A stretch of DNA of 64,000 nt from Sphaerodactylus townsendi (Eukaryota), in contig NC_059438.1 of NCBI RefSeq assembly GCF_021028975.2, positions 25,110,001 to 25,174,000 of the forward strand. The letters are read 5' to 3'. The notes below the pieces were generated by a model. That model made no database searches. It was not told the origin of the DNA and saw only the letters and a program-made list of their open reading frames with translations. The position numbers were made by a program, and so were the translations under genes. Below, piece by piece: positions 7,950 through 62,720 of the stretch (the stretch's first letter is position 1; each line of letters opens with the position of its first letter).

Positions 7950-9110
7950 AGCCAGCGGCCCTTCGCCTCGTGGGACAGACGGCTGGATCGGGCCCGCCCA
8001 AACGCGCGAGAAGTCACGCTCGGGTCTGGCTGGAAGGTACGGCTCCCAGGAGGCGCGCCTCCTCATCCCCGCGCCCCTTTCCAAAGCCGGGTTCCTCCCT
8101 GCTGCCAAGGGTGCTTCTGAGCACGTCCAGAGTACTGCTACCTCTGCCGCCCCGGGCGGGGCTTGAGGCGGGGGGCGGGGCGGGCGGTGGGGCCGGGAGG
8201 GGCGCGGCCGCCCGGCTGAGCCCTCCCCTTCCCCCTCCTCCTCCTCCTGCCAGGCTGCCCGGCAGCGCCGCTGGGATGGGACGCGGCCCGGCTGTGCGGA
8301 GGCGCGCATGATGGAGCGGCGGCCATGGCCCGAGCAGCGGCGGCGGCGGTGGCGGGATCGGCCGGCGGCGGCGTCGGGGCCCCGGGAGCGGCGCGGGCGT
8401 CGAGGGGCGCTGCGGAGGAGGCGGCGGCGGCGGCGGCGGGAGTCGGCGTCGGGGGGGAGCCGGGGGAGCTGTCCGTGGCGGAGGTGCTGAAGGCCTACGA
8501 GCAGCCCGTGAACGAGGAGCAGGCGTGGGCCGTGTGCTTCCAGTGCTGCCGGGGGCTGCGGGGCGCCGAGAAGGGCTGGGGGCCGGCCGGACGCATCCGC
8601 GACACCGCCGACCTCCTGCTGCACCGCGACGGCTCCGTCTCGGCCCGCGGAGAGTACGGCGTCGCAGGTAGGACCACCACGGCGGGCGGGCGGGCGGGCG
8701 GGCGGGGCTGGCCCAGGGAGCGTCGCCTGCAGCCCGCGGCCCTCCCCCCGCCGGGCACCCTTGGGGGCTTCCACGCCGCCTCTGCTGGGACAAGACCCGA
8801 GCTCAGCGAGCCCTGCGGAATCTCCTCGGCTTGGGGGGAGGGGGTGTGGCTTTGTAAGGGGGGCCATGATGAAGGCGACCAAGCTGGCTGCTTTGCCTTC
8901 TGGGCGCCCTGAGGAAGCCTGGGCTGGAAGCGCCCGCAGAGCCCTTCGGGGTGGGAATAAGAGCGGAGTTGTCACCGGGGGTCCCGCGGACAGGAGAGCT
9001 GGCCGCTCCCTCGGGCGTCCGGAGCCAGCAGGAAACGATGACTCATGGAGGGAGTTTTCCCCGGGGCCAGCGGAGCAAAGCAAAATTCCGGGGCAGAAAT
9101 CGGGGGGGGG
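7950..9110. promoter_or_regulatory. SPIRE2 CpG island/promoter
   Basis: Very CpG-rich. Multiple GGGCGG boxes at 8155-8215. Spans exon 1. Confidence 0.75.
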
Positions 9111-18100: not shown

Positions 18101-21100
18101 NNNNNNNNNNNNNNNNNNNNNNNNNNNNNNNNNNNNNNNNNNNNNNNNNNNNNNNNNNNNNNNNNNNNNNNNNNNNNNNNNNNNNNNNNNNNNNNNNNNN
18201 NNNNNNNNNNNNNNNNNNNNNNNNNNNNNNNNNNNNNNNNNNNNNNNNNNNNNNNNNNNNNNNNNNNNNNNNNNNNNNNNNNNNNNNNNNNNNNNNNNNN
18301 NNNNNNNNNNNNNNNNNNNNNNNNNNNNNNNNNNNNNNNNNNNNNNNNNNNNNNNNNNNNNNNNNNNNNNNNNNNNNNNNNNNNNNNNNNNNNNNNNNNN
18401 NNNNNNNNNNNNNNNNNNNNNNNNNNNNNNNNNNNNNNNNNNNNNNNNNNNNNNNNNNNNNNNNNNNNNNNNNNNNNNNNNNNNNNNNNNNNNNNNTGCT
18501 GCCTCCCACAGGACTGGCAGGGTGGAGAACTCGCCATAGAGGACCAGTTGGCTCAGCCTGTTGGAAGAGAACTGTGTGTGCCACACTTGTTTAGCCTGTT
18601 TTGGAATCTGTTCAAGGCAAAGATCAGGTCCCCTGATTGCCCCCTCCCCCCAGACTTCCACTTGGCCAGTGAGCTGCATCTGTGTTTGTCTTCTACAGAT
18701 ACAGCCTGCCCCCCCCCCCCCAACTTTCCCACAGGGAGGAAACAGAGCGGCTTCTGTGTGTCTGTCTGGAGGCTTCTGGCTGCCGGCTTCCCTCCGTCCC
18801 CTGGGGTGGCTCATGTTCTCCTCTGCTCCTAACTAATGGAACTGCAGCACAAGCAGGGGGGTGGGTGAAAAGAAGAGACCCAGATGGATCCAGGAGGAGG
18901 AAATGGGGTGGGGGGGGGGAGGACAACCGTTTGTTGCTGCTGCTTTTCAATCTGTGATTCTCCTGGTGGCTGAAGAAATTTGGAGAGAGGAATACTAGAG
19001 TGCTGAAATAACCAATAATCCCTTTTTGAAAAACTGATCATTTTGTTCTGTTCTGGGAACCACTTTGGGTCACTCCGGCAGCAGCGTGTAAATATTCTAA
19101 ATAAATACAAAATCACTGAAATGCCCAACAGCGTACCAATTAAAATTGGCTGTCTGTAGCTCAAAGGCCGATGGGGCAAGAGAAGCAGTGGGCGAGCGGG
19201 CAGCCTGGGCATTTACCTGGAGGACGCAGGGCAGGAATTAAGCCCCAGAGCAGAAGAACACAGTCCCTCCTCGGGTGCCTTGGGGGGGGGGCGTGCATTC
19301 CTTGGGGGGCTTCATTCAGCTGTGCTTTCTGCAGATGGTGCAGTCTTTGGGCTTCGCTATCTACCGGGCCCTGGATTGGGGCCTGGATGAGAACGAGGAG
19401 CGAGAGCTGAGTCCGCAGCTGGAGCACCTCATCGACCTGATGGCCAACAGCGACTCTGAAGACAGCGGCTGCGGCACGGCAGACGAGGGCTACGAGGGGC
19501 AGGAGGAAGAGGAAGAGGGAGTGGAGGCGGGCACCCTGCGAGCGGTGCGAACCTTCAGCCAAGCCATGCGGCTCTGCGCGGCCCGCCTCACCCACCCCCA
19601 GGAGGCCCAAGCCCACTACCAGGCTGTCTGCCGAGCCCTCTTCCTGGAGACTGTCGAGCTGAAGGCTTTTCTGGCAAAGATCCGCGATGCCAAGGAGGTG
19701 AGACGCCGCACGGCTGGGGGGACTCCTGGCCTGTCCCCTTTTGTGGGGGAGCCTCCTCTGCCCCATCTTCTCCCCAGGAGTAGAGACTTTTGCAGCAGAG
19801 CGGTTGTAATCTTTGGGGGGAGCCATCCATCCACACAGGGCCCCCATTTCTGCCCGAGAGCCCTACTTGCCAGGCTGCACCGCTGCCAAGGGCAGGTGCC
19901 CCCACCACACGCACCCTTTGAAACTGTCAGGTGGTTGATCCGGACAGGGAAGAAAGCCGGGTTGGCAACTCCTGTGAGAGGCTGCAGAACAGGCCTCTGG
20001 CTGCTGGCTGGAATGAGCCCCTCCCTGTGGCCAAGGGGACTCGCATTTGTTTCTCAACCTCCTGGACTGTCTGCCAGCTGGATCCGGATGGCTCGGGGCA
20101 GGCCAGGGCCGTGGGTGGCCGGTGCCTGCGCATCAAAACCTGCACAATGCAGAACAGGCAGCAAGCCGTGCTGGGAGGAGAGCCCAGGCAGGGCCTGCCG
20201 AATGCTAACCTGGCAGCGGCTTGTCAGGCTTCTGGGAAACGCATCCGGCTCGGACACTGGCAGGTCTCCAGGAGAGGGCAGGCCTTGGACTGCCCCAGCG
20301 CTGCAGGGAGGGCTCCTCGTTGCCTGCCCTCTGGTGGCTTGATCTGGATGCAGACGCTGCAGTCCAGATGTTTGTAGTCTAAGATCAAAGTGGGGGGAGC
20401 AGGGAATAAGCAGTTGCTCTTCCGCTCTAGCCATGCCCTGGGTGAACCCTGACCCCTAGGTGAACCCTGACCCCCAGCCGCTTCACCGGCCAGAACTGTC
20501 ATGCTAGCTGAAGAGCAACCCTCACAAACACCAGCTGCCTGTTCTGCACCGTGGAGCCCTGAATGAGTCTGGCCGTAACCCTTGCCCAGCCTACTGGCAG
20601 GCAGAAGAAGTTGGCTGGGAAGTACGTGGAGCCTGGCTGGCTTAAACCACAATCACAAAAGTATGGTGGAGTCTCCTCCTGTGGAGGTTTTTAAACAGAG
20701 GCTGGGTGGCCATCTGTCAGGAGTGCTTTGATTGTGTGTTCCTGCATGGCAGGAAGTTGGTCTCGATGGCCCTTGGGGTCTCTTCCAACTCTATGATTCT
20801 GTGAAACGTGTTGTTTTGTGTGTGGTGGGGGCACGAGGCCACCTTCACTGCACTGCAGCCTATATCAGCTGTGGATCTCCCTTGCTGCCCACCAGCCAAA
20901 TCCCACTCCTAGAGGACTTCCAGGCTGGCTGTGGACCAGCATGAGCAAGCTGTGGCTAGTTCAGGCCGCAGGGGCTTGTGGGAAAGACTGTGCTAGCCCT
21001 GTTTGGTGTGTGAAGGAGTCAAGGAGGAAGGGCTGAGTCAGTGGGCAGTGGAAGCCGCGCTCCTGCCACGGGAGTCAGCACAGAGCCACCTCCTGAAGCA

Positions 21101-38800: not shown

Positions 38801-41800
38801 AGGGGTGCAGCACTTTGCCTTTGAGCACCACAGAGAGTACCGGCAAGTGCAGTTCAAGTTCTTGGATGTGGTGGAGTCCATGGATCCCAACAACCTTGTG
38901 GTAGGTGTTCAACTGGGCGAGTTGGTGGTGCAGCGTCTGGGACCTTCCAGTGGCAAACCTCTGTGGTACAAAAAGATGGCCACAGAGACGATTCTCCCAA
39001 GATCTGAAATGCAGGATCGCAGATGGAAGATGCACTGAGGTTTTAGTCTCACTGAGGTTTTAGCCTGGCCCACGAGAGCTTTTCTCAGCCCTGGTGCAGA
39101 TTGTAGAAGTAGCAGTCAGTCAGTCAAGTATTTATTGTTTGAGCCATTGGCTATAACAATACAGAGATGCATGCAGTTAAAACATTTAAATTAAAACAAT
39201 AACTTAGTTTTACATTAAAATATAAATTATTTGTGTTTGCAATCTCTTCTTGGCCTTTTGGCTAAGATCAAGTGTAGTGCAGAAGTAGCAGCAACAGACA
39301 AGGATTTATTTCCAAAGCAGCAGTTGCGGAGCATCTCTGTAGTGGCACCAACCAAAGAGCCGCAAAATAACAAGTGTGCTTTTGGCCCTGCTGAGTCCCA
39401 CAGAAAGTTTTGCAAGGCTTTGAGGCTCAGCACATTGGGGTGGGAGGTGGGGATTGCCCTAGCAAAGCATTGTTTTTATTTCTTTACCCCCCTCCATACT
39501 TAACGTCCAGTTTGATAACAAATTCAGGAGGAAGCAGAAGCTCACTCTGCTTTTGTGGCTAATTGGTTGATCCTGATGGACGACATGACTGTTGTGTTTG
39601 GAGCAGGGACTCTGTGCCCTTCTGCCTCTCTCAAGCTCGTTCATCACCCCACGCCCTGTGGAAATAGTCTTCTTTTTCAGAGGCCCTTTAGTTTGCCGCC
39701 ATCACAACATTCTGAGGTCAGAAGTTCTGTAAGTTGGCTGCGCATCCTTCCTCTTCTTCCCCCAAAAAACAAATTTGGGATGGAACACAGTTGAGAGTCT
39801 GACCTGCCTGTCCTTGTTCAACAGGGGTGGAAAGCATCTGGCCTTGTTGCTCTTTGGAGCAGAGTTGTGATGAGGTCTGCAGAAGCTGCATTCATATCCA
39901 CACACACACACATAGCGCTTGAGTCCTGCCTGGGGGCTTGCTGGTTGGGAGGACCCTGCCTAATTGGACAAGAATCTGCTGGCAGGCAATTTTCCCAACT
40001 TGAGGGGGAGGGGGGAGAGTGATGCTTCAGGAGCAAGAATTGGACAGGCAGTTGTGCTATTTTTGAATTTTTCATTGCTTTGGGAAAAGATGCCTAATTT
40101 CTCTTGGTACTTAGAACAGACGCTCCTTTCAGGCTTTAATTAGGCACGCCAGAGCGAGTTAAGCACGGCAACAGCTTGGACTGTTGGAGGTACAAAGGAG
40201 ACAAAGAGCAAGATGGTTCCATGGCCTAATATTAGCGTAATGATGGAGACACTGACTGGCCCGGAGCCCAGCCCGATGCCCTTCCTGATAAGGTGAACGT
40301 GCCTTATCTTTGAAACTTCCATGCTGGCTCTTGCACACAGAGAGGATTTTGTCCAGGGCAGAGGCCTCCGTCGGCTTCCCAAAATAGCTCTTACATCGCC
40401 CACCTCATCCGCCATGGCTGAGAGGATTGCGGACAGCAGCTGGCAAGGATGAGCTAGCCAATCAAAGACAGTTCTGAGAGCCATCACCACTGGCATCGGG
40501 GCTGGGAACAGGACATGGCACGAGCTTTCAGCTGCCCCCAGTTCCTTGTCTGCCTTAAATGCCTCTCTCCACCTTGGGCAAGTTCCCCTTCAGGACAGAT
40601 GCCTGCAGGCCACACTGGTGGAGGACCCAGGCGGCACCTCAGGCTTTGCCTGGTGGGCTGGAGGGACGCAGCAAGCTCCCAGTCCTGCCCCTGGGTTCAT
40701 AAGTGGGGGTCCTCCACCGTTGGGAGGCAGGAAGGGTTCTGTGTTCCTCTCTCAAGAGCTGCCTGGAGAATCCCTCACCAACCTCCAGCCATTCTCTCTC
40801 TCTCTCTGTCTGCCGGCAGCTTCTGCTCCAGATGAACCCCTACCATGTGGACTCACTGCTGCAGCTCAGCGACGTGTGTCGGATGCAAGAAGACCAGGAG
40901 ATGGCCAGAGACCTTGTGGGTAAGAAGCGCAGGGCAGCCACGAAAGGCTGCCTCGCAGGGTTGCTGGGTGCCTTCCGGGGCCATCCCTAGATGAGGCCTC
41001 TGCTCCCAGAGGTGGGCACTAGTAACAGATGCAGGGGTGCCTTCTAAGGAGTATTGTAGGTGACTGAGCTCATGGGGCAAGGGCGGGGCGCAGGTTCATG
41101 TCTGGGATCAACCAGTCCCCTACACTGTGCCTAGTCATTTTATTCAGAAAAAAAATGTTGCTTGTCCAGGAACCTGCCCGAGGTGACTTACAATTTAAAA
41201 AAAACATTAAAAGATACTGATTAAAATCCAGCATTAAAAACCCAGCCATGCATAAAAACATAGACCAAAAGAACAGACCATTGACAGCTTAAAATACATT
41301 TCTGGACTAAAGTGGTATATTAAAAAAAACCTGAGTGAATATAAATGATTTGGCCTGACACCTAAGAGAGCAACACGGGCACCACGCTAGCCTCAAGGGG
41401 AAGGGCATTCCGTAAGCTAGGGGCCACCACAGAAAATGCCCTGTGTCTGATTGCCGTTCACCTCATCTCTGGAGGTGCAAGCACAGAGAGCAGGACTTCT
41501 GAGGCAGATCTTAACTCGTGGCCTGGATAATACAGGTGGCCGCGGTCCTTTGGGTGCCCTGGCACCATTCAGGGCGGAGTTTTGGAGGCCTTTATCCTGA
41601 TGGGATCCGGTACAGCCAATTACAGCTGTCTAAACCAGCACCATACTAGAGTCACAGTTGCTTCCTGAGCACCTGAGATTTTTAAATGTTCCTGCTTAAA
41701 AGTTTGTCTGTTTTTACATTCACTTAATTGGGAGCCTTGATCATGTGGATAGGCAGCATAAAAATGTGTGTATATATATATATGCCACTGGTGTATACCA

Positions 41801-44800
41801 TTTTAATGTATATTTTTGTTTAAATGTAAGTAATTTTGGCAATAATAATATGCTATAATGTGTTCAGTGATAATACATTATTAGAAAATTCAGTGTTTTC
41901 AAAGTTATAAGATTTAATTTAATATACAACCATGCTGGTAGTTCCACCTGTTGTGACATATGAGACTCTTTCTGTCCACATAATAGACTGAAGCATTGCC
42001 AGGACAGAAGCATTTCCTTCCAGTGTTTTGCAATGTGTTTCCCTATATCCATGGTAGCGAACCTTTGGCACTCCAGATGTTATGGACTACAATTCCCTTC
42101 AGCCCCTGCCAGCATGGCCAATTATAGTCCATAACATCTGGAGTGCCAAAGGTTCGCCACCACTGCCCTATAACTTATGGTTTGTTTGGGAATGTGTATC
42201 TCTTGATTTTAAACTTCTATAGTACCTCACATTCCTTGGGGCAGAACATGATCTCTTAGTCCTGTCAGTCAAATGACTACCAAAATTTAAATGGCTGCCG
42301 TGGTCCTCTGCCCCGTTCTTCTGCCTCTTTCCCAGAGAGAGCCCTCTACACCCTGGAGTGCGCCTCTCACCCCTTGTTCAGCCTCACCAGCGGGACCTGC
42401 CGGCTCGACTACCGGAGGCCAGAGAACAGGTAGGAGGTCACAATTGTGTACCAGCTGCGCTCCTGCACTGTGATGGGTGGGAGATGGGCCACTGGGCTGG
42501 AAGTGGGCCTCCCCTCCCCCGCCCTGCCCCAATATATTCTGTGTTCTTAATTGCTCAGCCAGTTGTGGTTCAGGAAGCATTACTGGGCCTTAACTGAGTG
42601 CTCTTTCTCTGTCAATCCAGACTGACTGTGGGCCTGGTCTGGATGAGACTCCCCCACCACCTCACCCCCCCTCATCTTAACTGGCACCTGGATTAGAGGT
42701 TTCCCTGTTTTGGATCAGCAGCACGCTTTCCCCCTGAGAGAGTCTGTGTTGTGCATAAGAGTCAGCAACCGGCCTTTCCTTCTGCTGTCTCCCGCAGAGC
42801 TTTCTACCTGACCCTCTTCAAGCACATGATTTTCCTGGAGAAGAGAGGGTGCACACGTACCGCTCTGGAGTTCTGCAAGCTCATCCTCAGGTAATTGCTG
42901 TGGGTCAGAAGGGCGTGAGAGCAGGGGAAAGGTTGACCAGCAATCCCCCCCCCCTCCTGCCACCTGGCCAAAGAGTGCCCACTCTGCATCGCTCCACTCA
43001 CGAGACCCAGCCAGGAAGGGCCGTTCCACTGTCCTGCAGTACACCTTGGCCAGGATTGCTGCCGCCAGCCAGAGAAGCACCGGTTGGACACAAGAGGCAG
43101 AGGCGTGGCCAGGCCTCGAGGCTTTATAGCAGCCTTCTTTTTCTCTCCCTCCACAGCCTGGACCCGGAGAATGACCCTTTGTGCATGCTGCTGGTGATTG
43201 ATTTACTGTCGCTGCGAGCAAAGGAGTATGCCTTCCTGACACGCATCTTTCAAGAGTGGGAGGTGAGCTGCCTGGGGGCCAGTTTGGGTCTGCTGGACTT
43301 GCAGGCGGGGCTTCATGGGAGAGCAGCCGCTTGCAGCTGGTGCTGTGTGCCTTTGGCCAGTGGGGCTGGAGGGGTGACTACGTGGGCTCTTGCGAAGGGG
43401 GTGGGAAGGACTGCATCAGAGGTCTTCCCACTGGGTTGCAGAGAGTTGCTCGAGATTGTGCCAGCTGTTGTGGTCTTTGCGGGGAGGGCCTAAGTCAGTG
43501 GTGGCAAACCTATGGCACGGGTGCCAGAGGTGGCACTTGGAGCCCTCTCTGTGGGCACGCGCACACAGAGTTGTCATGTGGGGGGCGGAAAATCACCCCC
43601 CCACACACACACACACACATCTAGGCTGGCCTGGGCCACTGAGCACGACGTGCACACACCGCGGTGAGCAGGGAGGATTTGGCTGGCGGGCCTGGTGCCT
43701 GTGCTCCGGTGGCTGCTGCCCAACGGGGGAGGGAGGGGGGCACAGAGGAGGCAGAGATGCTAGAGAGGCACAGAGCAGTGCTCATGAGACTTGCTGGAGG
43801 CTAGAGCAGACTGGTCCCTGCTTGAGCGGGTGGGGCGGAGGAAGAGGGAGCCAACCGTTTTTTTCTAAACTAAAACCTCAGCATTCAGGTTAAATTGCCG
43901 GGTTGGCACTCTGCGATAAATAAGTGGGGTTTGGGTTGCCATTTGGGCACTTGGTCTCAAAAAGGTTCGCCATCACTGGCCTAAGTTCTTCTCACTGCTT
44001 TTCTCTGCAGTTGGGAATTGGTCCCTCTGATGTTCGGGTCCCTCTGATGCAGCTCCCCGCAGTGGCACAAGGGGCCACCCACAAAGAAAAGGGAGGTGGC
44101 TGCAAAGCCAGAGGGACACCTGGCACGCAGACAAGGGTGGCTGAGCCCCCGACACCCCAGGGGCTGAGAGCTGCATCCGCCCTCCTGCTCTTCTGGGGCT
44201 GACAGCATCACCCCCAAGAGCTCCAGGGTCCCCCAACTCTGCCTGTTGATACGCGGAGGGTGAGGGGCTGCTTCTGGCACTGCTGGAGCCTGATAATTGC
44301 TGCTTAATCCCCTCCATCCCATCGCCTTCTCCTTCACTGTGTCTCTTACTTGAAGACTTCTAGAGTGGGGAAGGGAACTCTCCCCCCCTCCCCAGTGAAT
44401 AGTTTTCACCTGCACCCCTTCCGCCCTTGACGCCCTTTGACATCAGAGGTTCAGGCTGGTGCACCTTTTGTTCAGACAAAGATGCAGTTTTGCTGGGGGT
44501 CTTGCAAGGAGACAGCTGCAGCTGGGGAGGGACAGGGACAGGGAAAACGATGGCAGTTCCCCCTGCTGGCCACAGGAAGGCCTCCTCCCCGAGGCCTGCT
44601 CCTGATTGGTGCTCCAGCTGCCGGTCTTCAGGGTTGGGTGCTTGAGGACTGGCTTTTTTGGAACCAGGCCGGCTGATGATGGCTTTTCCTCCTCAGAGTC
44701 ACCGGAACCTCTCTCAGCTGCCCAACTTTGCCTTCTCAGTCCCTCTGGCATATTTCTTTCTCAGCCAGCAGGAAGATGTCTCAGAAGCAGAGTCCAGCCA

Positions 44801-47800
44801 CGCTCACGAGAAAGCCTCCGATCTCGTTCGGCAGGCGCTGATCATGTTTCCGAGTGGTGAGTTGGAAGCCGGGGGGAGATTACGCAGAGATGCCAGGCTG
44901 GGCCCTGGAAGGGAAGCCGGAGACCTCTGTGTGCCCAGCAGGGGTGTCGTTTGGGGCCCCATTCAGCAGAGAGCTTGATGTGCACTTGGGTGCAGGGTGA
45001 CTCACAAAACCAGGGCGGAAACCGTCAAAGGGGTTGGTCCTGGGCCATCAAAGAGAGGTTGAACTTCCTCGTCCCTAGCGGTGGTTAGCAATGGAAGTGG
45101 AGTCACCAAGCCTCCTCCCTTGGGGTTTTCCCCTATTGATGGAGCTGCCCTCTGCTTGCGGGGGAGGGGGTTCAGGTGCTGCAGAAGTCCAGGCAGCAGG
45201 AATGCAGACTAGAGACTCCAGGTATTTGTACTGGGCAAGTTGGTGAGAGCAGCCCTTGCTATGTAAAGAAGAGGTGGAAGAGGGTGTTGCATAGATTCAC
45301 ACCTCTTGACAAGGGAGGGTCAGTGGGGTGGTTACTCCCTCCCCCCCCCAGTTCTCTTGTGCTGAATAAAACCTGGTTTATATTGCCGAAGGCTTTCATG
45401 GCCGGAATCACTGGGGTGTTGTGGGATTTCTGGGCTGTATGGCCCTGTTCCAGTTGTGGCAAACCTTTGGCACTTGTAGTCCATAACATCTGGAGTGCCC
45501 AAGGTTCGCCACCACAGCGTAGGATTTTCTCCTGATGTTTCACCTGCATCTGTGGCTATCATCTGCCACCAGATCCTCTGAAGATGCCAGCCACAGATGC
45601 AAGCGGAACGTCAGGAGAAAATGCTACTGGAACACGGCCAATACAGCCCGGAAGTCCCACAACCCCCCAAACCCTTGTTTCTTCCTGCTTCACAGTTGCT
45701 CAGAAAGACAGTGGCATGAATCCGCAGAAGAGGGTGTCTGCTTTCAGCCCCATTTCTCATGACCCACTCTCTGTGTTTCTGGCCTCACCTGCCCTCCAGA
45801 GCCCTGCCTGACTTTGCCCAGCTATTGCAGATGTGGGCACCCTGCTCTTTGCCACCCTGCTGCTCCTGCTGCTGCTGCTCTTGCCCCTGGGGGGTGGGCG
45901 GAGAACTTTTCTCTATCCCACCCGCACAAGGGTCACTGTTTGCTGAACAACTGTTAGCTTTGTTAGGCAAGAATATCTGTTTCATTGGAGAGGGGGGGGG
46001 GAGTCTAGTTTGTGTATACCCATGACAGGGAGCGTCCTTTCAACATTTGTCAGCTTAAAATAAACACTTGGGAGCTGCTGTGGGGTGGGGTGTGTGTTGT
46101 GTTTTCCTTGCCTTTTTTCCCATTACTTGGGCCAGGACCTGCCACTGCCTGTATTCTGTTCCAGGCCAACTCACTTTGTTCAGAATCTGGTTCAGGGGAG
46201 GTCTTGGGGGTTCTGCCTGTTTTGTGGGGGCTGCGTCCCACTCTCACAGCCCCAGTACGAGCTGTACTGGATGGCTGGCTGTCAAGGGTGCTCTTTGGCC
46301 CCAGATGAAGTGGTAGGGAAGGGATGACTTAGGCCCGTGGTGGCGAACCTTTGGCACTCCAGATGTTTTGGACTACAATTCCCATCAGCCCCTGCCAGCA
46401 TGGCCATGCTGGCAGGGGCTGATGGGAATTGTAGACCATAACATCTGGAGTGCCAAAGGTTCGCCATCACGGACTTAGGCACTGGAGAAAAGCAAGCCAG
46501 GCCGCTGCAGCCCTCGGCCCCTAGGGTGTCAGGGGCCCAGCCAGGCTTGTCTGTATGTCAGATGTTCCTTTGGCTTGGCAGCAGTCTCCCTTTTCTTTGC
46601 AGGGGGCCCCTTTCACCCCTGTGGGGAGCTTCAGGGGACCCCGTCACATCAGAGGGACCGATTCCCAACCGCAGAGAATGTTAGAGCCTCCCCTCGAAGA
46701 CCCACAACAGCCAACACCTTCTCAAGCAACCCTCTGGGTTTGATTCTCTGCTCTGCCACCTGAGCTGTGGAGGCTTATCTGGGGAATTCAGATTAGCCTG
46801 TGCACTCCCACACACGCCACCAGCTGGGTGACCTTGGGTTAGTCACAGGTTCTGGGAGCTCTCTCAGCCCCACCTACCTCACAGGGTGTTTGTTGTGAGG
46901 GGGGAAGGGCAAGGAGATTGTAAGCCCCTTTGAGTCTCCTGCAGGAGAGAAAGGGGGGATACTTTTTCTTCTTCTTCTTCTTCTTCTTCTTCTTCTTCTT
47001 CTTCTTCAACCCAAAGAGCTAGGAAGGCGGGGGCTTCCCCCAGCCGTCCTGGGTGGTGCAACACGGCTGTGACTCGCTTTCTGAACTACGGCTTTTTTTA
47101 AAAAACCTCCTTGTCCCTCTTGTAGTTCTGATGCCTTTGCTGGACCACTGCAGCGTGCAGCCGGACGCGATGGTGGCCTCCCACTCGTTCTTTGGGCCAG
47201 ATGCCCAGTTAAGGTACAATATGGCTGGGGGCCGCTTTGCACTTCCGAGCGAGAGAGGAAGGAGCCCAGTAGCTCAGCAGCTGAGTCTGTGGAGTCCCCG
47301 GAAGAAAGTTGGAAGGCAGGAGCTTGAGGGGTAGTGGAAAGAGAGCTGGGGACGCAGGGTTTTTCTGCAGACCCCTGGAAAGGTGTTGGGTCCAAGAGTT
47401 GACACCCATGAGCTAACCATAAACCCTCCAGCCCTGCAGGCCATCAAAAAGAACCTGCGGGCAAGGTGTCACTGCGCTCCTTTTCTCCCCTGAGCGATGG
47501 CCTCTGTGCCTCCACTATAGCAGAATCTTGTCCGTCTAGCTCCTAGACACCTTTGTGATAAAATGTCTAGAATCTTTTGCACCCCTGCAGGAAGTCTCTG
47601 GTTCTTCCTGGCAGTTGGCTTTTGTGTTGGGGGGGAGGTGAGGGGCCAGCTGTGCCTGAGAGAGCTCTGCAGGAAGGGGCTGGTTGCCCTCCATGGGGGC
47701 CACCCACAGCCAAGCTCTGCTGTGTCTTGGCTGCCCAGCGGCGGAATTTTTCCCTGGGACTTTGCTCCCTCCAGACCCCTCTTTTGCGCTGACCGTCTGC

Positions 47801-50631
47801 CCACTCCTGCAGCTCACCTCCTGCTCTGAGCCAGCTGGTTGCTCTGTACTTGGGGCGGACTCACTCCCTGTGGAAGGACCCGGCTGTCATGGCCTGGCTG
47901 GAAACGAACGTCCATGAAGTGCTGCGAATGGTGGATGCCAACAACCCAGCCTTGGAAGAGGCCGAGCAGAAGTGAGTCCGACTGAGTCCTTGAGGGCAGA
48001 CCTGCTTCCCCGCCCTCACTCCAAGGGCTTCTCGGCCATTTGCCCCGTTAGCATCCTGCCCCCTTGTCTTCAGTGGTGGATTGTGCTATGTGGCTGGGGA
48101 TCTGCTTGCCACTTGATTTGCTGGGGTGGGGCCTGAAAGAGATTTTTAATCTGGGTCTGTCTCAAGTTAGCCAGAACACGAGTGCCGCTGGATCCAGTAG
48201 TCTGTGAACACCCCTGGAGGCCCAGGCAAGGTCTGAGGGAGGGCTCTTGGGAAAGGGAGCCAGGCCACAGGCCCCAAGGGAAAAGGGTCTTGTTTGTTCC
48301 ACCCTTCTGTTGCTGGATCCATTGATCGATGCCTCTTTAACATTGGATCCACAGGCGGAAGGTGCGGTACCAGAGTGCTCCCAGGAGCATCTACCGCCAC
48401 GTGATCCTCTCGGAGATCAGGGAAGCCACTGCAGCGCTGCCTCTGGTGAGGGCTCTGAGTGGGTGAATTGGTGTGTGGGGGGGTGTTGTTGGCGCATTTC
48501 CTCATCCTGACTCCCAGACCTCCCCAGCCTCGCTTCTCCAGGTCCAAGGCTGGCTTGCCCTGTGGCCCAGTCTGGGCAACCCCACCTTGAGCAGGGGCCT
48601 TCCCTGATCCTCTTGCCAGGGGCCTTGGCCATGCGTTGAGCTCCACCCTCTCCCCCACGTCACTGTCTGGAGTGGCAGGGGACCCTAGTCCTGGTCCAGC
48701 TTCTGCTGGCTCAGAAGAAAGGCCAGCCTGCAAGAATGCTTGGGGCCTTGGCAGCCTGCCAGCCTCTGGTGTCCTTTTGGCATGACCCAGGATGCCCAGG
48801 GCCAAAGTGGCACAGAGCAGCAGAATCAAGGAAAGGGGGCTCCTTTGGGACGTGGGCAAAGGAGCTGCAGTGGTCCTGGGGAAACAAGGCTGGAGAGGGC
48901 TGGCAGCTGGGCACAAAGTTGTGGTTTTCTGCCACCGGTCTGACCTGGACATTCTTTGCTTCCCTCACTTCAGGAAGTGACTTCTCAGCCTATCATGGGG
49001 TTTGATCCACTGCCGCCTCTGGACTCCATTGTGTCCTACACACGGCCAGAAAGGTATTCCTTCTTGCTCTGCTTCTGACCTGCTCTATGCCTCCATCTTG
49101 TGTGGAGCGGGGAGGCAGAGGAGGGCAGGACGGTTCGGATGCTGACCTGGCTCCCTGAGGCTAGACATGTCCAGGCCTCCTCTCTTGGACTTGAGTAGCC
49201 CTCTAGACATTGTCCCTCCTCCAGAGCGAGCGCTTTGGCAGAGCTTGGACCCCTCTGAGGAAGGGTGTCTCCTGCCCCCTTTTCCTGGGAGAGCCAACTT
49301 GCAACTTCTGCCTCCCCTTTTGCAGGGCCGCGCGACCATCCAACGAAAGCACTTTGTCGCTCTTCTTTCGCTCATTGCTGCCGAACTTCCACTTACAAGT
49401 ACGTTGAGCGCGGGAGCCGCTGGCCTGGCCACAAAGCCCACTCCACCCACTGTGTGTATGTGGGGGGAGATTTGCAACTGTTGTTGCCCCTGGCGGGCAC
49501 AGTGCAGCAGCCAGGACAGGGTGTGGGGAGGCTGCCAGGTCCTGTGCTGAGAAAAGGGGAAGGTTTCTGTGGAACAGAGCTGGGCGCCTGCCAGTCTGCA
49601 GGGCACATTTCAGTTTGGATCCAGTGAAAATATTTTGCCCTGTCTCAGCTGGGAGGAGAAGCAGCCTTGACACACCTAGCCCTGTGCTGCTGTCGGGGGC
49701 TCTGGAGGGAAGGGGCCTCTGAGGGCCTGCACTACCCTGTTTCCCCGAATATAAGACATCCCCGGAAAATAAGACATAGTAGAGGTTTTGCTGAAGTGCG
49801 AAATATAAGGCATCCCCCAAAAGTAAGACGTAGCAAAGTTTTTGTTTGGAAGCATGACAGACGAACAGAACAAAGAAAAATAAGACATCCCCTGAAAATA
49901 AGACATAGCTCATCTTTGCGAGCAAAAATTAATATAAGACACTGTCTTATTTTCGGGGAAACACGGTAGTTTCTGCAGCGACTCTCAGAGTCGGGGCTCC
50001 CCAAGGTTATCAAGTCCCTTGAGAATGCAGCCTTGGCCACTCCTGCTGTCAAACACAGGAAGAAGAAGGACGCTCTTGTTCTTCCGGACTGCACTTGCCA
50101 GTGGGCACAACCCTGCCAGCTGCCTGGCTGTGCCTCAAGACTGGGATTGGAAGGGATTGGAATGCACACAAGTGGAAGGGGGGTCCAGGTCAGCAGCTCA
50201 GGCAAGGAGGAAATGGTATCCAAGTAGGTTACGAGCCCAGAGTCTCGGTTGTGCTCATTGATGGTGCATCCAGCCACCTACGCAAGGGCCGTGCCGAACT
50301 TCTAGCCGACCAGGGCCTGGGGGGGCCAGTGGGGTTTCTGCAACGGCCACTGTGCTTGTGTCTGCCCTCTGCCAGAGACGTGCCTTTCTGGAGGCAACTG
50401 CCAGCCCCCCAGCCTTGCCCTGCCCTCCTGCTGCGATCGGGGGTCTCACGGTGTGTTGCCTTTCAGGGAGAAGTTGGAGCTGCTGGAGCGGAGGAGCCGG
50501 GCGCAAGGCAAGACCTGAACCAGGGCGTGAACCGGCTGATGGCAGCCATGCGCGACATGCTGGCCAACATCCAGTTCCAGGAGCCCCCCCATGAAGACAA
50601 TCCTGAGGGGGGTGGGGAGGAATGGGACTGA
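32569..50631 (+). CDS. TCF25: Transcription factor 25 / ribosome quality control subunit (Rqc1 homologue), 689 aa, 18 exons
   Basis: Exons 32569-32772, 34728-34892, 35317-35391, 36012-36148, 36552-36617, 37643-37725, 38770-38900, 40820-40919, 42336-42429, 42798-42890, 43157-43262, 44697-44856, 47126-47213, 47813-47971, 48355-48445, 48974-49053, 49326-49398, 50467-50631. Total 2070 nt in frame. [49 protein letters not shown], ..EEWD match mammalian TCF25. Confidence 0.96.
32632..32670 (+). repeat. Coding (GAG)n microsatellite, poly-Glu13 in TCF25 exon 1
   Basis: (gag)11 gaa gag. Confidence 0.95.
33134..33489 (+). mobile_element. CR1 LINE 3' end
   Basis: Encodes [38 protein letters not shown] (CR1 ORF2 C-terminus). 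(ttcttatg)n tail. Confidence 0.88.
34155..34296. mobile_element. PIF/Harbinger-type MITE
   Basis: TIR ggccccttccgcaca/tgtgcggaatgagcc. 3-bp TSD taa. Confidence 0.8.
35538..35820 (-). mobile_element. tRNA-derived SINE, older subfamily
   Basis: Diverged reverse complement of the 15781 SINE. Confidence 0.7.
37269..37409. mobile_element. PIF/Harbinger-type MITE, inverted relative to the 34155 copy
   Basis: About 3 differences from the reverse complement of 34155-34296. 3-bp TSD ttt. Confidence 0.8.
38470..38764 (+). mobile_element. tRNA-derived SINE abutting TCF25 exon 7
   Basis: Near-identical to the 15781 copy. Flanked by tctagg direct repeats. Confidence 0.9.
39116..39241 (-). mobile_element. 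Short LINE 3' end with aataaa and (ctga)n tail
   Basis: Minus strand ...tagccaatggctcaaacaataaatacttgactgactgac. AT-rich body. Confidence 0.6.
39242..39278 (+). pseudogene. U2 snRNA 5' fragment (nt 1-37)
   Basis: atctcttcttggccttttggctaagatcaagtgtagt versus U2 ATCGCTTCTCGGCCTTTTGGCTAAGATCAAGTGTAGT: 35/37 identity. No further U2 sequence follows. Confidence 0.9.
41150..41570 (-). mobile_element. L2 LINE remnant
   Basis: Minus strand agggcattttctgtggtggccc (RAFSVVA), typical of the L2 ORF2 C-terminus, followed by a T-rich 3' UTR. Confidence 0.6.
42049..42165. mobile_element. Palindromic hAT MITE, family A (internal deletion)
   Basis: Same termini. TSD ccctatat/ccctataa. Confidence 0.88.
43496..43978. 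mobile_element. Non-autonomous hAT element, family B
   Basis: TIR cagtggtggcaaacct/aggttcgccatcactg. Perfect TSD gcctaagt. Confidence 0.9.
45389..45670. mobile_element. Fold-back Penelope-like element with a nested, truncated family-A MITE (45451-45517)
   Basis: Left and right halves are inverted copies. Contains ctgaaga...ggaacgtc hammerhead-like core. Confidence 0.6.
46335..46472. mobile_element. Palindromic hAT MITE, family A
   Basis: Hairpin. Perfect TSD acttaggc. Confidence 0.92.
46734..47006 (+). mobile_element. tRNA-derived SINE, 5'-truncated, long (ctt)n tail
   Basis: Matches the 15781 copy from the B-box onward. Confidence 0.88.
49735..49966. mobile_element. Tc1/mariner-pogo type MITE
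   Basis: TIR ccctgtttccccgaatataagaca/tgtcttattttcggggaaacacgg. TA TSD. Internal aaaataagacat repeats. Confidence 0.85.
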
Positions 50632-55260: not shown

Positions 55261-55728
55261 CCAGGGAGAGGGCTTGGAAGTTGAAGCAACTCTTCACCAG
55301 ACAGAGAGAGAGACAGAGAGACCAGCGGGCTCCTCCCCTTCTGGGTGCCAAAGGGTGTGTGTTTGTGTGTGTGTTAAAGGGTGAATGTCAGGAACCAGTA
55401 ACAAGGAAACAGAGACCCGGGAGACGGTCCATCGCTACAATCTCCGGTGTGTTGTACCACGAAAGCCGATTCAGAAGGGAAACATACAAGTGCCGGAGTC
55501 TGCAGTCTCCGCTTTTGGGCTGGAGAACTTCTGGTCTGGCCTGTTAATTTTGAAACTTCCAGTCCCTGAGAAGAAGATCTGGTGCCACAGATACCCACCG
55601 CCTGAGGTGAGTTCCTAGGACATTCTCTCTGGGGTTCCTTTCTCCAGAAGCCAAGTAGCTTTTTGGAGTAAAACACCTCATTGGGCACTGATTGCTTTTT
55701 CTCTGGTTTTCCCCACAAAGTTGTGAAG

Positions 55729-56664
55729 ATGCCCTTGACGCTGCTGCAGGACTTTGCCAACGTGACCTCCGCCATTCCTGAAGCCAACGGGACCAACGAG
55801 ACATCCGGCAGCCCCGAACACCCCGTCATCATCCCCAGCGAACTCTTCCTGATTCTGGGCTTCTTGAGCTTGCTGGAGAACGTGCTGGTGGTGGCGTCCA
55901 TTATCAAGAACCGGAACCTGCACTCGCCCATGTACTACTTCATCTGCTGCCTGGCTGTGTCGGACATGCTGGTGAGCGTCAGCAACCTTGTGGAGACCCT
56001 TTTTATGCGCCTGATAGAGCACGGGGTGTTGGTCTTGGCGCAAAACACGATGCGCCACATGGACAACGTCATGGACATGCTGATTTGCAGCTCCTTCATG
56101 GCCTCGCTGTCCTTCCTGGGGGTCATCGCCATTGACCGCTACATCACCATCTTCTATGCCTTGCGGTACCACAGCATCATGACCATCCAGCGGGCCGTCA
56201 TCATCATCATTGCCACTTGGGTGGTCAGCATGAGCGCCAGCACCATCTTCATCGCCTACGACGACCACAAAGCCGTGATCCTCTGCCTCTTGAGCTACTT
56301 GCTCTTTATGCTGGCCCTGATCATGGGGCTCTACGGCCACATGTTCCTGCTAGCTCGCCAGCACGCCCGGGCCATCTCCCGAATGCACCGGAAACACACC
56401 GCCCCGCAGGTGACGAGCATGAAGGGGGCCATCACCCTCACCCTCCTGCTGGGGGTCTTCTTTGTCTGCTGGGGCCCTTTCTTCCTCCACCTGATTCTCA
56501 TTGTCACCTGCCCCAGCCACCCCTTCTGCAGGGGCTACTTCAAGTTCTTTGACCTCAACCTGATCCTTGTCATTTGCAATTCCGTGGTGGACCCCATCAT
56601 TTACGCCTTCCGCAGCCAGGAGCTCAGGAAGACCCTGAAGGAGGTGGCCTTGTGTCGCTGGTGA
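55729..56664 (+). CDS. MC1R: Melanocortin-1 receptor, 311 aa, single coding exon
   Basis: 7-TM GPCR with [65 protein letters not shown]. First ATG is 55729 (the track's 55681 start is TTG). Lies between TCF25 and beta-tubulin. Confidence 0.97.
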
Positions 56665-58933
56665 AGCAGGGCGGTGAGGGTGGGCATCGTCATGGGCGGG
56701 GCGGTGGTGGAGGGGCCTGACACCTCTACCGAGGGGCTGCCTGCCTCATGGCACCCTGAAGCACAGCGCTGCCTGGCGCTTGGCCCTCTATGCCGAGGAG
56801 GAGGAGGAGGAGGGACTCGCCTCTCTTACCGGAGATTGCAACCAGTGGTGGACGTGGCCTGGTTGGTGTCCTGATGGCCTGTAAAGTAGAGGCCAGAATC
56901 AGATGCTGCGCAGCTCTGTCTCTCTCTTATGCTCCTGCTGTAGGCAATTCTTTCCCATCCCCATAGACTTGTGTAGGGGAGAAGCTACTTTGGTGCAGTG
57001 GACTGCTTGTGATATAACAGAACTCTCAGAGAGACAGACAGACACAGAGAGATTTTAATGTTGAGGATTACCCCAAGGTTTACAGGATAATGATAATGGT
57101 CCCCCTTGCATGCCAAACAGACAGGCATTTACACCTCACCCCCTTTCTAAGAATATTATGGCTGAGGGTGGACTGGGCGTCTGGTCTTGACCCCCGCTCC
57201 AAAGTGGAGCTCCAGGCAGGAGCAGGGCGGTGTGGTTGCCTAGTGGATCTCTGGTGCATGGCAGTGCGTCGCAGTGGTCAGAGTGCCAGACCAGGACTGA
57301 GGAAAACATACTGGAATCTGCCATGGAGCTCACGGGTAACTTTGGGGCAGCCAATTGTTAGGCTCAGCCGATCTCACAGAGTTGTCAGGGGGGTAAAACG
57401 GGGAACAGAAGAGAGAACTCCGTATGCCACCAGGAAAAAACAAATTGGAGTGTCACAAATCAGTCGCACGCACACACCCCTTGGGGGCCCTACACACAAA
57501 TGCCATTCTCAGAGGTGGCTGTCCATCCCCCCTCCCCCTCCCCCCCCCGCACCTTACAGTTGGACAATAATGCTTTGTGTTTTGACTAAAGGCTGCAGCT
57601 ACCTGGAATCAAACAGACGATGGCTAGAAAAAAATGTAAGCTTATTTAAGAAAACTGTTGTGTGGTTTTGCCATATCCCACCTTACAGGGTTGTTGTGAG
57701 AATAAAATGGGGGAGACGAGGCCAGCTGTTCTGGATCCCCAGTGGGGAGAAAGTCCATCTTGTGAATGAAATAAACATCAAAGTCGGATCTAACTTAACT
57801 AAACTTAAGGCGACAGCAAAGACAGAAGAGCAGACGTCCACACGGTTTGGGGTGGTGGTTTTGTGGGCTTTTAAATGTTAATGAACCCCGCCCTGAGGGG
57901 GTGTCAGTTTGGGCAGAGGGGCCGTGGGGAGGGAAGGTCCGCTTAGCACAACGAAGCCCCCCCCCCCCCCACACCTGCAGAGGAAAGGGGAGGGTGGCAA
58001 CTCTGGAGGCATCATTGGTCTGGGGCAGGCAGCAGTGGGGGACACCGTGAAGAAGTCCCTCCTCCCTTCTCCAGCTGCCAGAGCCTCTCCCAGCCAAATG
58101 CCTCTCCCCTCAAGTGCCTCTTTGCAGGAGGCTTCCCGGAGAATCGGTCTCCTGACGGTCCTGCCTCTCGAAGGCAGGAAAGAGGCTGTGACTTTAAGGA
58201 GGCGTCCCTCAGCCGGCCGGCCGGCAGCCTCCAAGGACAGCGGCTGGGAGGCCAGTCTGACAGGTCGGGGAGGGAGGGCGCCCGGCCCCCGCTGACGCCC
58301 TTCTTGACACCCCCACCCCCCACCCCCAGAGAGGCCTTTTGCCGGCGGCCTGGCCCTGCTCCTCCCTGCCCCCTGGGCCTTGGCCTCCTCGCTGCTCCTC
58401 TACTAGCCCAGCCCTCCTCTTTCCCCACAAAGCGGAGAGGGGGCCTGAAATGCCAGCCAGGAGCAGGAGCAGCTCGACCTTTGGACGCCCCTGGCTGGCA
58501 TCAGAGCGGCGCGCGCGGGGCTTGAGGCCCACCAGAGCCGCGGCTGGGACTGAGGAGCAGCGTCTTGGCCGCAGCAGCCCCGCCCCCACCGGGACCTCCT
58601 TGCCCAGAGGGCTTTTTGTTCCTTGCAAGGATGCTGAGAATCTCTGCCAGAGACGAGTCCACTGGATGGATGGATCGATCGAGGCCCGGCAGCCGGGCGG
58701 GCAGGAAAACCCCCGCGGCGGCCGAATGAATCACCACAGTGACTCTGCTGCTTAATGGGAAGGGGCCTCCCAGCGGGCTGGCCGGAAGGAGAGGGGGCTC
58801 AGCCACAGGGCGGGGGGCGGGAGGGAGGGAGGGGGCGCCTCTCATGCCGAAGGAGAATGGCACCCAAGCCAGGACAGCCGCCATGGATCCCCCCAGCTGG
58901 CAGAGCTGCGTTTCGGGGGGGCAGCGTCTCTCT

Positions 58934-60099: not shown

Positions 60100-62720
60100 T
60101 CAGATCCTGCAGCCGCGGGGGCGGGGCGGGGATGCTGCGCGGCTCAGGGAGAAGAGAAGAGAAGTCCGAGCTACAAGAGCCGCGCTGGGTCGCCCCCGGC
60201 GGGTCCGTTTCGCCCAGCATCGCTCCGACCGAAGTCCTCGTGCTGGGGAAGGCAGCCCCCCCATCTCTGTATTCTCCCCCCTCTTTCCTTCCAATTGGAG
60301 AAAGGAGGGGCGCGGCCTTTGTCTTCCTCGCAGGGTCGCCACAGCCCCAGACAAAGAAGCCCGCCGGACAGGCCGGAGCACATCGCCCGGCCCCTCCCGC
60401 TGGCGGCTCGCCCCACCCTCCAGCTGAGGAGAGGGGAGGGGAGACTGCCGCCGCCTGGCCGAGCCCCTCCGAGGTGGGGTCCCGCTGTGTGCGAGGGGTC
60501 AGTCGGCAAGTGCCCAGGCCAGGCTCGCGCCTGCGGATGCACCAAACATTTCGACCCAAGGAGCAAAAGTAGGGGGGGGGGGCGACAGCCCGCTGGCCGC
60601 CGTGGAACTGCCCCTCGTGGGTGGGTGGGTGGGTGGGTGGGCTTGGGATCCGGGTGCTCCTTTGTCTGGCAGCCAGCCTGAATGGGCCTGCTCCCCTCCT
60701 GCAGCCACGCCTCAGCCCAGATGCGGGCTGGGAGCGGCAGGGCACAAAGCCCCCCCCCCCCGAGGAGAGCGGGTCGGCCCTGCCCGCTTTCCTGGGGCTG
60801 CCGCCGCCCGCGGGGGCGTCTCCTTCGTGGCCTGGAAATCGCAGCCCCCACCTGGGCTGGGGCGTGGCTGCTGCTCCGGCGGGGGGGCCCCGGAGTCCGC
60901 CAGAGCCCCCTCCCCTCCCGTCCCCTGGGGGCGCTGGCCGCCAGGCCGGCCTCGGTCCGGGGGCACTTTCCGCGGCCCGTCGGAGCCTCCACGCCCGCCC
61001 CGCCTGCGCGGCCCGTCGGGGCTTGCTTTGTGTCCGGCAGGGGCGCGCCGGTTGGCCGGCCGGCCGGCGGGTCTGCCGGTGCTGGTGCTGATGCTGCTGC
61101 AGGGCTGGTGCAGGATTCTGCAGCGGCGCCTCCTGATTGGCGGAGCGGGAGGGGGTGACGTCAGCGGGCCGGCCCGGCCGCAGCGGGAGGCGACCATAAA
61201 ACCCGCTGCAGGCAGTCGCCCGCCCGCCTCCTCCGCCCGCTCCGTGCCGCCAACGCCGCCCACCCGTCCGCCCCGCCGTAGCCACCGTCGCCGCCGCCGC
61301 AGCATGAGGGAGATCGTGCACATCCAGGCGGGCCAGTGCGGCAACCAGATCGGAGCCAAGGTAAGGACGCGGCTGCTCCCGACGGGGCGCACGGCTCAGG
61401 CCGCCGGGTCCCTCGAAGGCGGCAGGCTGCCGTTCCGCGGAGGCGTCCCTCCCCTCGTACATCCCCCCTCTCCACCTGGTGCCAGGGCTGAGCCTGCCCC
61501 CGGCTCGGCATCCCGGCGCGGGTGGGTGGGGGGCGTCTCCCATTGTGCCGGCTCTCCTCGGCTGCCTCCTGCCAAAGCGGGGTGTGTGAGGGGGGCGGAG
61601 GGCTCTTTTTCTCCCCCGCCCGCGCGGGGGTGCCCCACCCAGTGTGCGGCCGCCGGGCGTGGCTGGAACAAAGGGCCCTCCCAGCTGCCGGCGGATCCGC
61701 AGGTGACCTTGCCGGGGAGGCCTTGACCTTGGCCAGCTCCGTCCGGGCAGCGGTGGGGGGGGGGGCTTTTTGGTGCCCCGGGGCCGAAGCCAGCGCTGGT
61801 GGCGGGCCGGGCGGGGCCGTGAGACGCCCCCGACTCCTTTGTCCTGTCCGCCGACTGGGACAGGTGGAGGGGCGGGGCGGGCTTGGAGGGGGAAACCGGC
61901 AGCAGCTTCCGGGCAGGGTCCTCCTGCGACCTTGGGCAAAGCTCCTCTTCTTTCTGGGGGTGGGGGGGGGGACACAACGGCACGGAACGGCCCAGAGCTG
62001 AAGACAAAGAGGGCGAAGGAGGGGGTGGGCTGGCAGGTGCCCCTGGATCAGCTGGGCGGCTGCTGCTGCTGCCGGACGGGGGGCAGTGGGGATCCTGCCC
62101 TGCCCCTCGACAGGGCACCTTTCTGGGCACTTGAGCGAGGAAAGGGCCGCCGCTGCCGGCAAGGGCCAGGGGGCCTAGCGGGAAGGCAGGAAGGGTCTCC
62201 TGAGGGTGCCTGACGGGCCCTCCCCTCCCCTCCCGCCGCCGGGGGGCCTCGTGGGATGGGCTTGAAAGAGATGCTGACACAACCGGCTCAGGGACGGGGG
62301 CTGTGCCGAGGAGGAGGTACAGGGCAAAGGGGCTCCTGGAGCTCGGAGAGACCCGTGGCTCCGCCAGTGAGACCACCTGGACAGCGGGTAAGCCCCTCCC
62401 CCACCCCCGCCCGGCATCTGTGGCCGGCCGGCGTGCGGTGCGGGGCTGCCCCCCTGAGCGCTGGGTCCCCCGAAGACGGAGCACCGTCCGGCTGCAATCC
62501 GAGCAGTCCTTTGGGGCGGGCGGGCGAGCGGGGGGGGAGGGTGAAGGCTGACACCTGCCACTCAGGCGACGAGGCTCCCCAAGAGGCCGCGTAATCAGCC
62601 CGCACCGCCTGCCTTTCTCCCCGCCGGCCCGGGCGTATGGCAGGCCTCCCCGCGGCAGCCCCCGGCCATCTGCCTGGTGTCAGACCACGCCGGGGGGCGC
62701 TGGCGCACCCGACACCTCTG
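60100..62720. promoter_or_regulatory. TUBB3 CpG island; core promoter with inverted CCAAT (61136-61140), full CRE TGACGTCA (61156-61163) and TATA-like cataaaa (61195-61201)
   Basis: Motifs read directly, spaced as a core promoter about 100-170 nt upstream of the ATG. Confidence 0.75.
61304..61360 (+). CDS. TUBB3: Beta-tubulin exon 1 (MREIVHIQAGQCGNQIGAK|gtaagg); remaining exons lie beyond the window
   Basis: Canonical 57-nt beta-tubulin first exon with the MREI autoregulatory motif. Isotype assigned by position immediately 3' of MC1R. Confidence 0.9.

Follow-up and report, generated by a model that had tools for sequence, protein, structure and literature searches.

Loss of the N-terminus-ECL3 cysteine pair from an otherwise intact MC1R of the gecko Sphaerodactylus townsendi

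The MC1R locus

The window (the whole 64,000-nucleotide stretch of Sphaerodactylus townsendi DNA analyzed here, contig NC_059438.1, positions 25,110,001 to 25,174,000) contains an MC1R gene whose reading frame has no internal stop and matches PF00001 with an E value of 5e-37 (Table 1). Among the matches listed, the best protein matches to this frame are all MC1R, and the best solved-structure match by sequence is human MC1R (E = 3e-104). In an MC1R-only tree, the protein falls inside the gecko clade (support of 99, starred) and the squamate clade (support of 100). It is an intact seven-helix class A receptor with a very short ECL2 (residues 177 to 180) and with cysteines at positions 73, 74, 120, 186, 247, 261, 267, 283, and 309. 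A predicted model (mean pLDDT of 71, with residues 1 to 31 below 50) has seven helices, from 37-60 through 276-295, along with an ECL3 helix at 265-273, and gives TM-scores of 0.76 to 0.79 against human MC1R structures.

Two exons of a KIND-domain gene, presumably SPIRE2, lie at 8325 to 8912 and 19335 to 19700, and a stretch at 17865 to 18496 is masked. MC1R itself is flanked by TCF25 upstream and by a beta-tubulin gene downstream, which we take to be TUBB3, a name also given by synteny. TCF25 and TUBB3 are the neighbors expected for MC1R, in the same gene order, according to the accessible text of PMC9251544. Fused MC1R-tubulin gene models are present in other species; many public models are of this kind, mostly under the name "tubulin beta-3" (P0121, P0122, and P0154 to P0273), and such MC1Rs therefore escape length-matched searches. 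The genome assembly holds one match at the MC1R level and four further receptors at 46 to 54% identity, presumably MC2R to MC5R, all of which keep the N-terminal Cys and the CxC of ECL3. No second MC1R copy with the cysteines was found in the genome (127 scored of 582 candidates). MRAP genes gave matches at two loci.

Table 1. Positions of genes, codons, and predicted features in the window
Feature	Position	Strand	Remarks
TCF25 exons, upstream neighbor	40823..47969	+	6 Pfam PF04910 matches, all of the genome's in this window
Predicted 5'-UTR intron	55607..55720	+	Donor consensus at 55607; pyrimidine tract followed by its first AG at 55719-55720; motifs only
MC1R coding sequence	55729..56664	+	One exon, 311 aa plus stop; 7tm_1 domain
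Gly27, site of the squamate N-terminal Cys	55807..55809 (GGC)	+	One base from a Cys codon
Arg94, position 2.65, human L99 equivalent	56008..56010 (CGC)	+	Numbering from L101 = 2.67
Cys261 to Cys267, retained intra-ECL3 pair (human C267-C273)	56509..56529	+	Alignment; human structure
Gly269, human C275 equivalent	56533..56535 (GGC)	+	One base from a Cys codon; Gly also in Euleptes
Asp275, position 7.36 (human N281)	56551..56553	+	Glu in Euleptes
Asn277, position 7.38 (human F283; Tyr/Cys in other squamates)	56557..56559	+	Asn in Euleptes
Beta-tubulin first coding exon, downstream neighbor	61304..61360 (end approximate)	+	Start motif at 61304 and translation

The coding sequence was compared with contigs X4 and X5, which carry two other organism labels, using 216 synonymous and 717 nonsynonymous sites. 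Against X5, we counted 18 synonymous differences and 1 nonsynonymous difference (dN/dS of ~0.017; binomial P = 5e-11); against X4, the counts were 7 and 3 (dN/dS of ~0.13). Hallmarks of a pseudogene or of gene decay, namely a broken frame or relaxed selection, were absent, the frame being open and synonymous changes outnumbering nonsynonymous ones 18:1. Judged by these comparisons, the gecko MC1R is under purifying selection.

The cysteine pair and its codons

The original prediction stated that the N-terminus has no Cys, that the equivalent of human C275 is absent, and that C267 and C273 are kept. Each of these statements was borne out: no Cys precedes TM1, alignment to the human chain places a Gly at residue 269, and Cys261 and Cys267 are present, with residues 261, 267, 269, 275, and 277 aligning with human C267, C273, C275, N281, and F283. 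By analogy with the human MC1R structure, Cys261 and Cys267 are probably bonded to each other. The claim that the C35 equivalent is absent is correct in that there is no Cys, but the site that was lost is residue 27 and not the column of human C35. In the column of Gly27, Eublepharis (P0154) and Gekko (P0002) have Cys, while Euleptes (P0001) has Asn. The N-terminal Cys lies 9 to 11 residues from the TM1 anchor column in squamates versus 8 in birds, turtles, and mammals; compared with tuatara and these three groups, it is 1 to 3 residues further from TM1 (e.g., P0006 and P0154). A Cys pair between the N-terminus and ECL3 is typical of MC1R but does not define it, frogs also being without one. 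In the gecko the pair is absent, its sites being Gly27 and Gly269, and no replacement extracellular Cys was found elsewhere in the receptor.

Contig X1, from which the assembly may derive, has no differences from the window, and X3, from a second sample, has a single difference that is not at a key codon; both span 55500 to 56900. Among the differences listed for X4 and X5 (all but 3 of those of X4 being displayed), none falls in codons 27, 94, 269, and 275, and codon 277 has only a synonymous difference. An assembly error at these codons, foreseen in the original prediction as a way in which it could fail, is rejected by the four contigs, which agree, and by Euleptes, which also lacks both cysteines.

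A spliced N-terminal extension that supplies a Cys had been foreseen as well. A 74-codon upstream frame (55385 to 55606) ends at a consensus splice donor. With the first acceptor, at 55720, this frame hits a stop right before the junction, while a weak second acceptor AG at 55728 would join it, with its two Cys codons, to the MC1R start in frame. In the part covered by X5, 4 of the 6 differences in the upstream frame are nonsynonymous, as would be seen without constraint, and an added N-terminal Cys would stay unpaired because the C275 equivalent is absent. We therefore reject the extension; the frame is likely a uORF or a chance occurrence. More broadly, the view that the receptor is decaying or nonfunctional, or that its state is an artifact of assembly or annotation, could appeal to the in-frame joining through 55728 and to the human receptor, in which loss of C35 is loss of function (PMC4885833, excerpt). 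The agreement among contigs, the shared state of Euleptes, the dN/dS of 0.017, and the properties of the upstream frame largely refute this view, and we consider it very improbable.

Distribution of the losses and the disulfide

We aligned the gecko MC1R with 273 proteins, giving 274 rows in which some species occur twice. The rows were merged from the best 120 of 999, 120 of 989, and 120 of 167 matches, along with 2 cluster members, and 272 were scored for the Cys pair after 2 with short N-termini were dropped. Among the matches listed, both cysteines are present in 236 rows, neither in 23, and only the N-terminal one is lost in 13, while loss of C275 alone was seen in none of the 272. Over all 274 rows of these matches, C275 is Cys in 251, and C267 and C273 are Cys in every row. 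The 23 rows with neither Cys comprise the S. townsendi receptor, that of Euleptes europaea, and all 21 frog sequences. Loss of only the N-terminal Cys is seen in 12 otophysan fish rows and in the lizard Hemicordylus, 13 rows in total. Squamates keep both in 29 of 32 rows of the matches listed, including all 7 other geckos, which disposes of the possibility, also raised beforehand, that most squamate MC1Rs already lack these cysteines.

A second set of 66 further cluster members, of which 1 partial sequence was dropped and 65 were scored, contained 25 frogs with neither Cys, 24 squamates with both, and 14 carp-like fish and one oddly modeled snake N-terminus without the N-terminal Cys. The one exception was P0338 of Podarcis raffonei, in which C275 is Trp while the N-terminal Cys is retained; this record is either a variant or an error. 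Taking the matches listed and the cluster members together, neither Cys is present in any of the 46 scorable frog rows, and otophysan fish have lost the N-terminal Cys but keep C275 unpaired in 26 of 26 rows (among them P0060, P0064, P0067, P0102, P0221 to P0223, and P0300 to P0313). No replacement extracellular Cys was found in the 6 rows listed for otophysan fish and Hemicordylus. Frog rows (P0054, P0100, P0123 to P0141, and P0274 to P0299) have extra cysteines at the positions of gecko residues 44 and 170 in the 4 rows whose cysteines were listed, and in neobatrachian frogs 7.38 and 7.39 are also changed.

On a FastTree tree built with the trait columns left out, the N-terminal Cys changes four times, two of these losses falling in squamates, and C275 changes twice, in each case on a branch where the N-terminal Cys is lost as well. 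A sign test for coupling gave p = 0.5 on 2 informative pairs, a number too small to reach significance. A rough, post hoc branch-length estimate, the square of 0.0635 (the N-terminal Cys being absent over ~6% of the eligible tree length), is 0.004, or ~0.012 if the Podarcis raffonei record is real, in which case the one-way rule also fails. The alignment test called for by the original prediction thus finds every C275 loss on the tree accompanied by N-terminal loss, but with 13 of 272 rows of the matches listed having lost the N-terminal Cys only and with p = 0.5, a one-way coupling is suggested and not proven.

Among the matches listed, the nearest to the gecko receptor is that of Euleptes europaea (XP_056718211.1, P0001; 87% identical). 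It likewise has no N-terminal Cys, Gly at C275, an acidic residue at 7.36, and Asn at 7.38, but it has Asn instead of Gly at the N-terminal site, Glu instead of Asp at 7.36, and Cys instead of Arg at 2.65. S. townsendi and Euleptes group with a support of 90, below the star threshold. With this support and with Gly in one and Asn in the other at the N-terminal site, the Cys losses of the two may be separate events, although the loss of the pair likely predates their split. The proposed concerted loss of one disulfide therefore stands in that both cysteines are gone from an intact receptor, but the state is not unique. As read from the alignment and tree, it is a lineage-level loss, convergent with that of frogs and not special to this animal.

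A pattern in which C275 is never lost alone among the 272 rows of the matches listed would be expected if pairwise loss is forced, with an unpaired Cys mispairing with C267 or C273 and trapping the receptor until a second loss is selected as a rescue. Mispairing of an orphan ECL3 Cys has been proposed for MC4R (Tarnow 2003, cited in the accessible part of PMC3101337). The same part of PMC3101337, however, reports unpublished mutants without the effect, the N-terminal Cys of human MC5R has no partner yet is kept (PMC10390531, excerpt), and otophysan fish and Hemicordylus still have an unpaired C275. We consider forced loss an unlikely account.

According to the available portion of a review (PMC4885833), human MC1R absolutely requires C35, which is needed for ER export, and its function is abolished by loss of any of C35, C267, C273, and C275; that portion also gives an older view, in which C267 and C275 pair and all four cysteines may form intersubunit bonds. 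The accessible text of a cryo-EM study of human MC1R describes a C267-C273 bond and makes no mention of C35-C275 (bioRxiv 10.1101/2021.06.20.449193), and C35-C275 has been modeled in the human receptor (PMC9032367, excerpt). Structures of paralogues show the bond that is missing in the gecko, as C35-C276 in MC3R (PDB 8IOC; PMC10390531, excerpt) and C40-C279 in MC4R (PDB 7PIV; PMC8563958, excerpt). These two excerpts disagree about MC4R, in that PMC10390531 says that the bond is specific to MC1R, MC2R, and MC3R and that neither MC4R nor MC5R (with R272 at the site) has it. Human MC5R (PDB 8INR), another paralogue, resembles the gecko receptor in being naturally without the bond, but it has lost only the ECL3 partner, with Arg at the C275 site (PMC10390531, excerpt). 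The double loss had been put forward as natural evidence for which cysteines pair. The pattern fits C35-C275 plus C267-C273 and sides with these pairs against the older C267-C275; the pairing had, however, already been seen in MC3R and MC4R structures and was largely settled by them. The natural losses lend it modest independent support.

Frog Mc1r (X. tropicalis XP_012817790.1 and 45 other rows) resembles the gecko receptor in being without both cysteines with C267 and C273 kept, and that of neobatrachian frogs also in its polar 7.38. It differs from it in its independent origin, its mostly Asn residue at 7.36, its hydrophobic 2.65, and in having been functionally assayed. X. tropicalis Mc1r, whose accession aligned in the accessible text of PMC9251544 has neither Cys, responds to alpha-MSH with an EC50 of 2.0 to 2.8 nM and to ACTH at ~7 nM without added Mrap, and it has basal activity and surface expression (PMC9251544, same text). 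Knockout of mc1r in X. tropicalis altered pigmentation, with dorsal pigment reduced (PMC12171348, excerpt). As the frog receptor is functional without the pair, some backgrounds can do without the bond, which is reported as required in human; the need for it thus depends on background. A literature search, covering few subscription papers and made at the level of titles and listings, revealed neither a publication on the Cys loss in the gecko or in frogs nor a functional assay of gecko MC1R.

The rim of the ligand pocket and the role of the bond

The original prediction also placed equivalents of N281D and F283N next to the ligand pocket. Asp275 and Asn277 are present, but "F283N" is most simply a Tyr-to-Asn change, inasmuch as 30 other squamate rows have Tyr or Cys at 7.38 and not Phe. 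Position 7.36 touches the ligand marginally, but 7.38 is outside the MC4R contact table. In MC5R, N7.36 touches His6 along with T2.61 and F1.39 (PMC10390531, excerpt); in MC4R, N7.36 contacts the ligand only with setmelanotide, and neither 7.38 nor 2.65 is listed as a contact (PMC8563958, Table S6). The MC4R mutant N285S has a surface level of 0.99 and an alpha-MSH Emax of 173%, and Y287V has values of 1.75 and 148% (PMC8563958, Table S7); an EC50 for either is not listed in Table S8. Among the 274 rows of the matches listed, 7.36 is N in 240, S in 17, K in 9, H in 4, D in 2, and E and R in 1 each, so that 3 rows have an acid, and on the tree it changes 14 times, to S, K, H, R, D, and E. Polar residues at 7.38 (N, S, or T) occur in 13 of these 274 rows, all without both cysteines, and have two origins. 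Because 7.36 varies often and 7.38 is no MC4R ligand contact, the TM7 changes look peripheral.

Compared with its human orthologue (PDB 7F4D, 7F4F, 7F4H, 7F4I, and 9K3P), which has C35 and C275, the gecko receptor has Gly at both sites, Asp7.36, Asn7.38, Arg2.65, and Phe3.36. It keeps the C267-C273 equivalents, the Ca2+ triad E2.60, D3.25, and D3.29 (E89, D112, and D116), the W6.48 toggle switch, F1.39, F6.51, H6.54, F7.35, L7.39, and the C-terminal Cys. Phe occupies 3.36 in all 9 gecko rows; this residue tunes SHU9119 agonism in human MC1R. Two other residues are unusual among the matches listed: Gly203 in TM5 (56335 to 56337) occurs in no other row, I, L, or V being usual, and Ser57 (55897 to 55899), common to Euleptes, is Ala in 269 of 273 other rows.

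S. townsendi and Euleptes also have other changes in common on the extracellular face (2.65, ECL1, 7.36, and 7.38), which may mean a changed pharmacology. An adaptive retuning along the lines of the original prediction, in which ligand selectivity, sensitivity to ASIP, or constitutive activity was altered by the freed N-terminus and the charged rim, is doubtful, if slightly less so than forced loss. The N-terminus has been proposed as a tethered agonist that lies along TM7 when displaced (bioRxiv 10.64898/2026.09.03.748715, accessible text), and its release could alter basal activity as well. The ligand contacts of N7.36 and the two origins of polar 7.38, both without the bond, point the same way. 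Against retuning, 7.36 is the variable site described above, and 7.38 and 2.65 make no listed MC4R contact. Moreover, among the matches listed, 7.38 is Tyr or Cys in 10 of the 21 frog rows, all of them without the bond, and Cys in 6 of the 7 other geckos, in which the bond is kept. Ligand coevolution was rejected: in the same genome, alpha-MSH has an unchanged HFRW core and Lys11, and the agouti-type domain keeps RLF/RFF-type cores. This alpha-MSH has Ala at position 3, as is common in squamates. The POMC exon (genome C1:30766135-30769188, L006) has three HFRW motifs. The six geckos with Cys at 7.38 (P0002 to P0005, P0121, and P0155) have Val at 7.39.

Arg94 occupies a position that among the 274 rows of the matches listed is L, I, V, F, M, or A in 272, Cys in Euleptes, and Arg in the gecko only. 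Arg94 and the Euleptes Cys are probably one CpG-type change apart. From the helix period, Arg94 may pair with Asp7.36, and we considered whether this candidate salt bridge compensates for the loss by stapling TM2 to TM7, with or without a change in basal activity. Both residues are rare (Arg2.65 in 1 and an acid at 7.36 in 3 of the 274 rows of the matches listed) and occur together in the gecko, codon 94 has no listed difference in X4 and X5, and 2.65 lies one turn above T2.61, one of the three residues that touch His6 in MC5R (PMC10390531, excerpt). Activating MC1R changes cluster around TM2, ECL1, and TM3 (PMC3172247, excerpt), and in cattle and pig L99P, at the same site, is a dominant-black allele (PMC2713407, excerpt); the gecko has Arg and not Pro there. 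At the other sites of melanic-allele type, we found no basic residue at 2.60 and no change at 3.29 or 3.33, and E89, D116, and C120 are kept. Against such a bridge, Euleptes pairs Cys2.65 with Glu7.36 and Etheostoma pairs Leu2.65 with Asp7.36, frogs do without such a pair, and acidic partners near the activating E92K are not needed for its effect (PMC3172247, excerpt). Compensation by this bridge is thus improbable, as is its stronger form, in which a covalent staple was swapped for an ionic one that clamps TM2 to TM7 and resets basal activity. If that form were true, the gecko, frogs, and otophysan fish would make a natural series on why C35 is essential in human and dispensable elsewhere. 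These alternative readings are not mutually exclusive, so that their odds overlap.

Our preferred reading, to which we assign a probability of roughly 0.7, is that this sole, intact MC1R of the gecko does without the N-terminus-ECL3 bridge and still reaches the surface and signals through Gs to alpha-MSH. Melanocortin binding and cAMP production via Gs are predicted from the kept pocket residues and the frog precedent, and signaling likely persists because the bridge is best read as an accessory tether that has been lost on two or more occasions. The intra-ECL3 bond would shape the ECL3 helix and be indispensable, while the second bond would merely pin the N-terminus beside TM7. The greater distance of the squamate N-terminal Cys from TM1 may have loosened the tether first. 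Once the N-terminal Cys had gone, as in the four losses on the tree, its partner C275 would no longer be held, and it was presumably then lost in two of the four lineages, this gecko lineage and frogs. Orphan C275 does not simply decay, however, because otophysan fish keep it in all 26 rows; like Hemicordylus capensis, they resemble the gecko in having no bond but differ in keeping C275 unpaired. On this accessory-tether reading, Asp7.36 and Asn7.38 would likely be tolerated or mildly compensating at the pocket rim and not a ligand switch.

Although C35 is said to be an absolute requirement in human MC1R, entire groups of vertebrates do without it. The gecko has the youngest double loss found here, and since relatives with both cysteines exist (Eublepharis, 83% identical), it offers the cleanest natural system for the role of the bond and its replacement. 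The gecko case bears on how C35Y-type variants in human are read and on the tethered-agonist model for the basal activity of MC1R.
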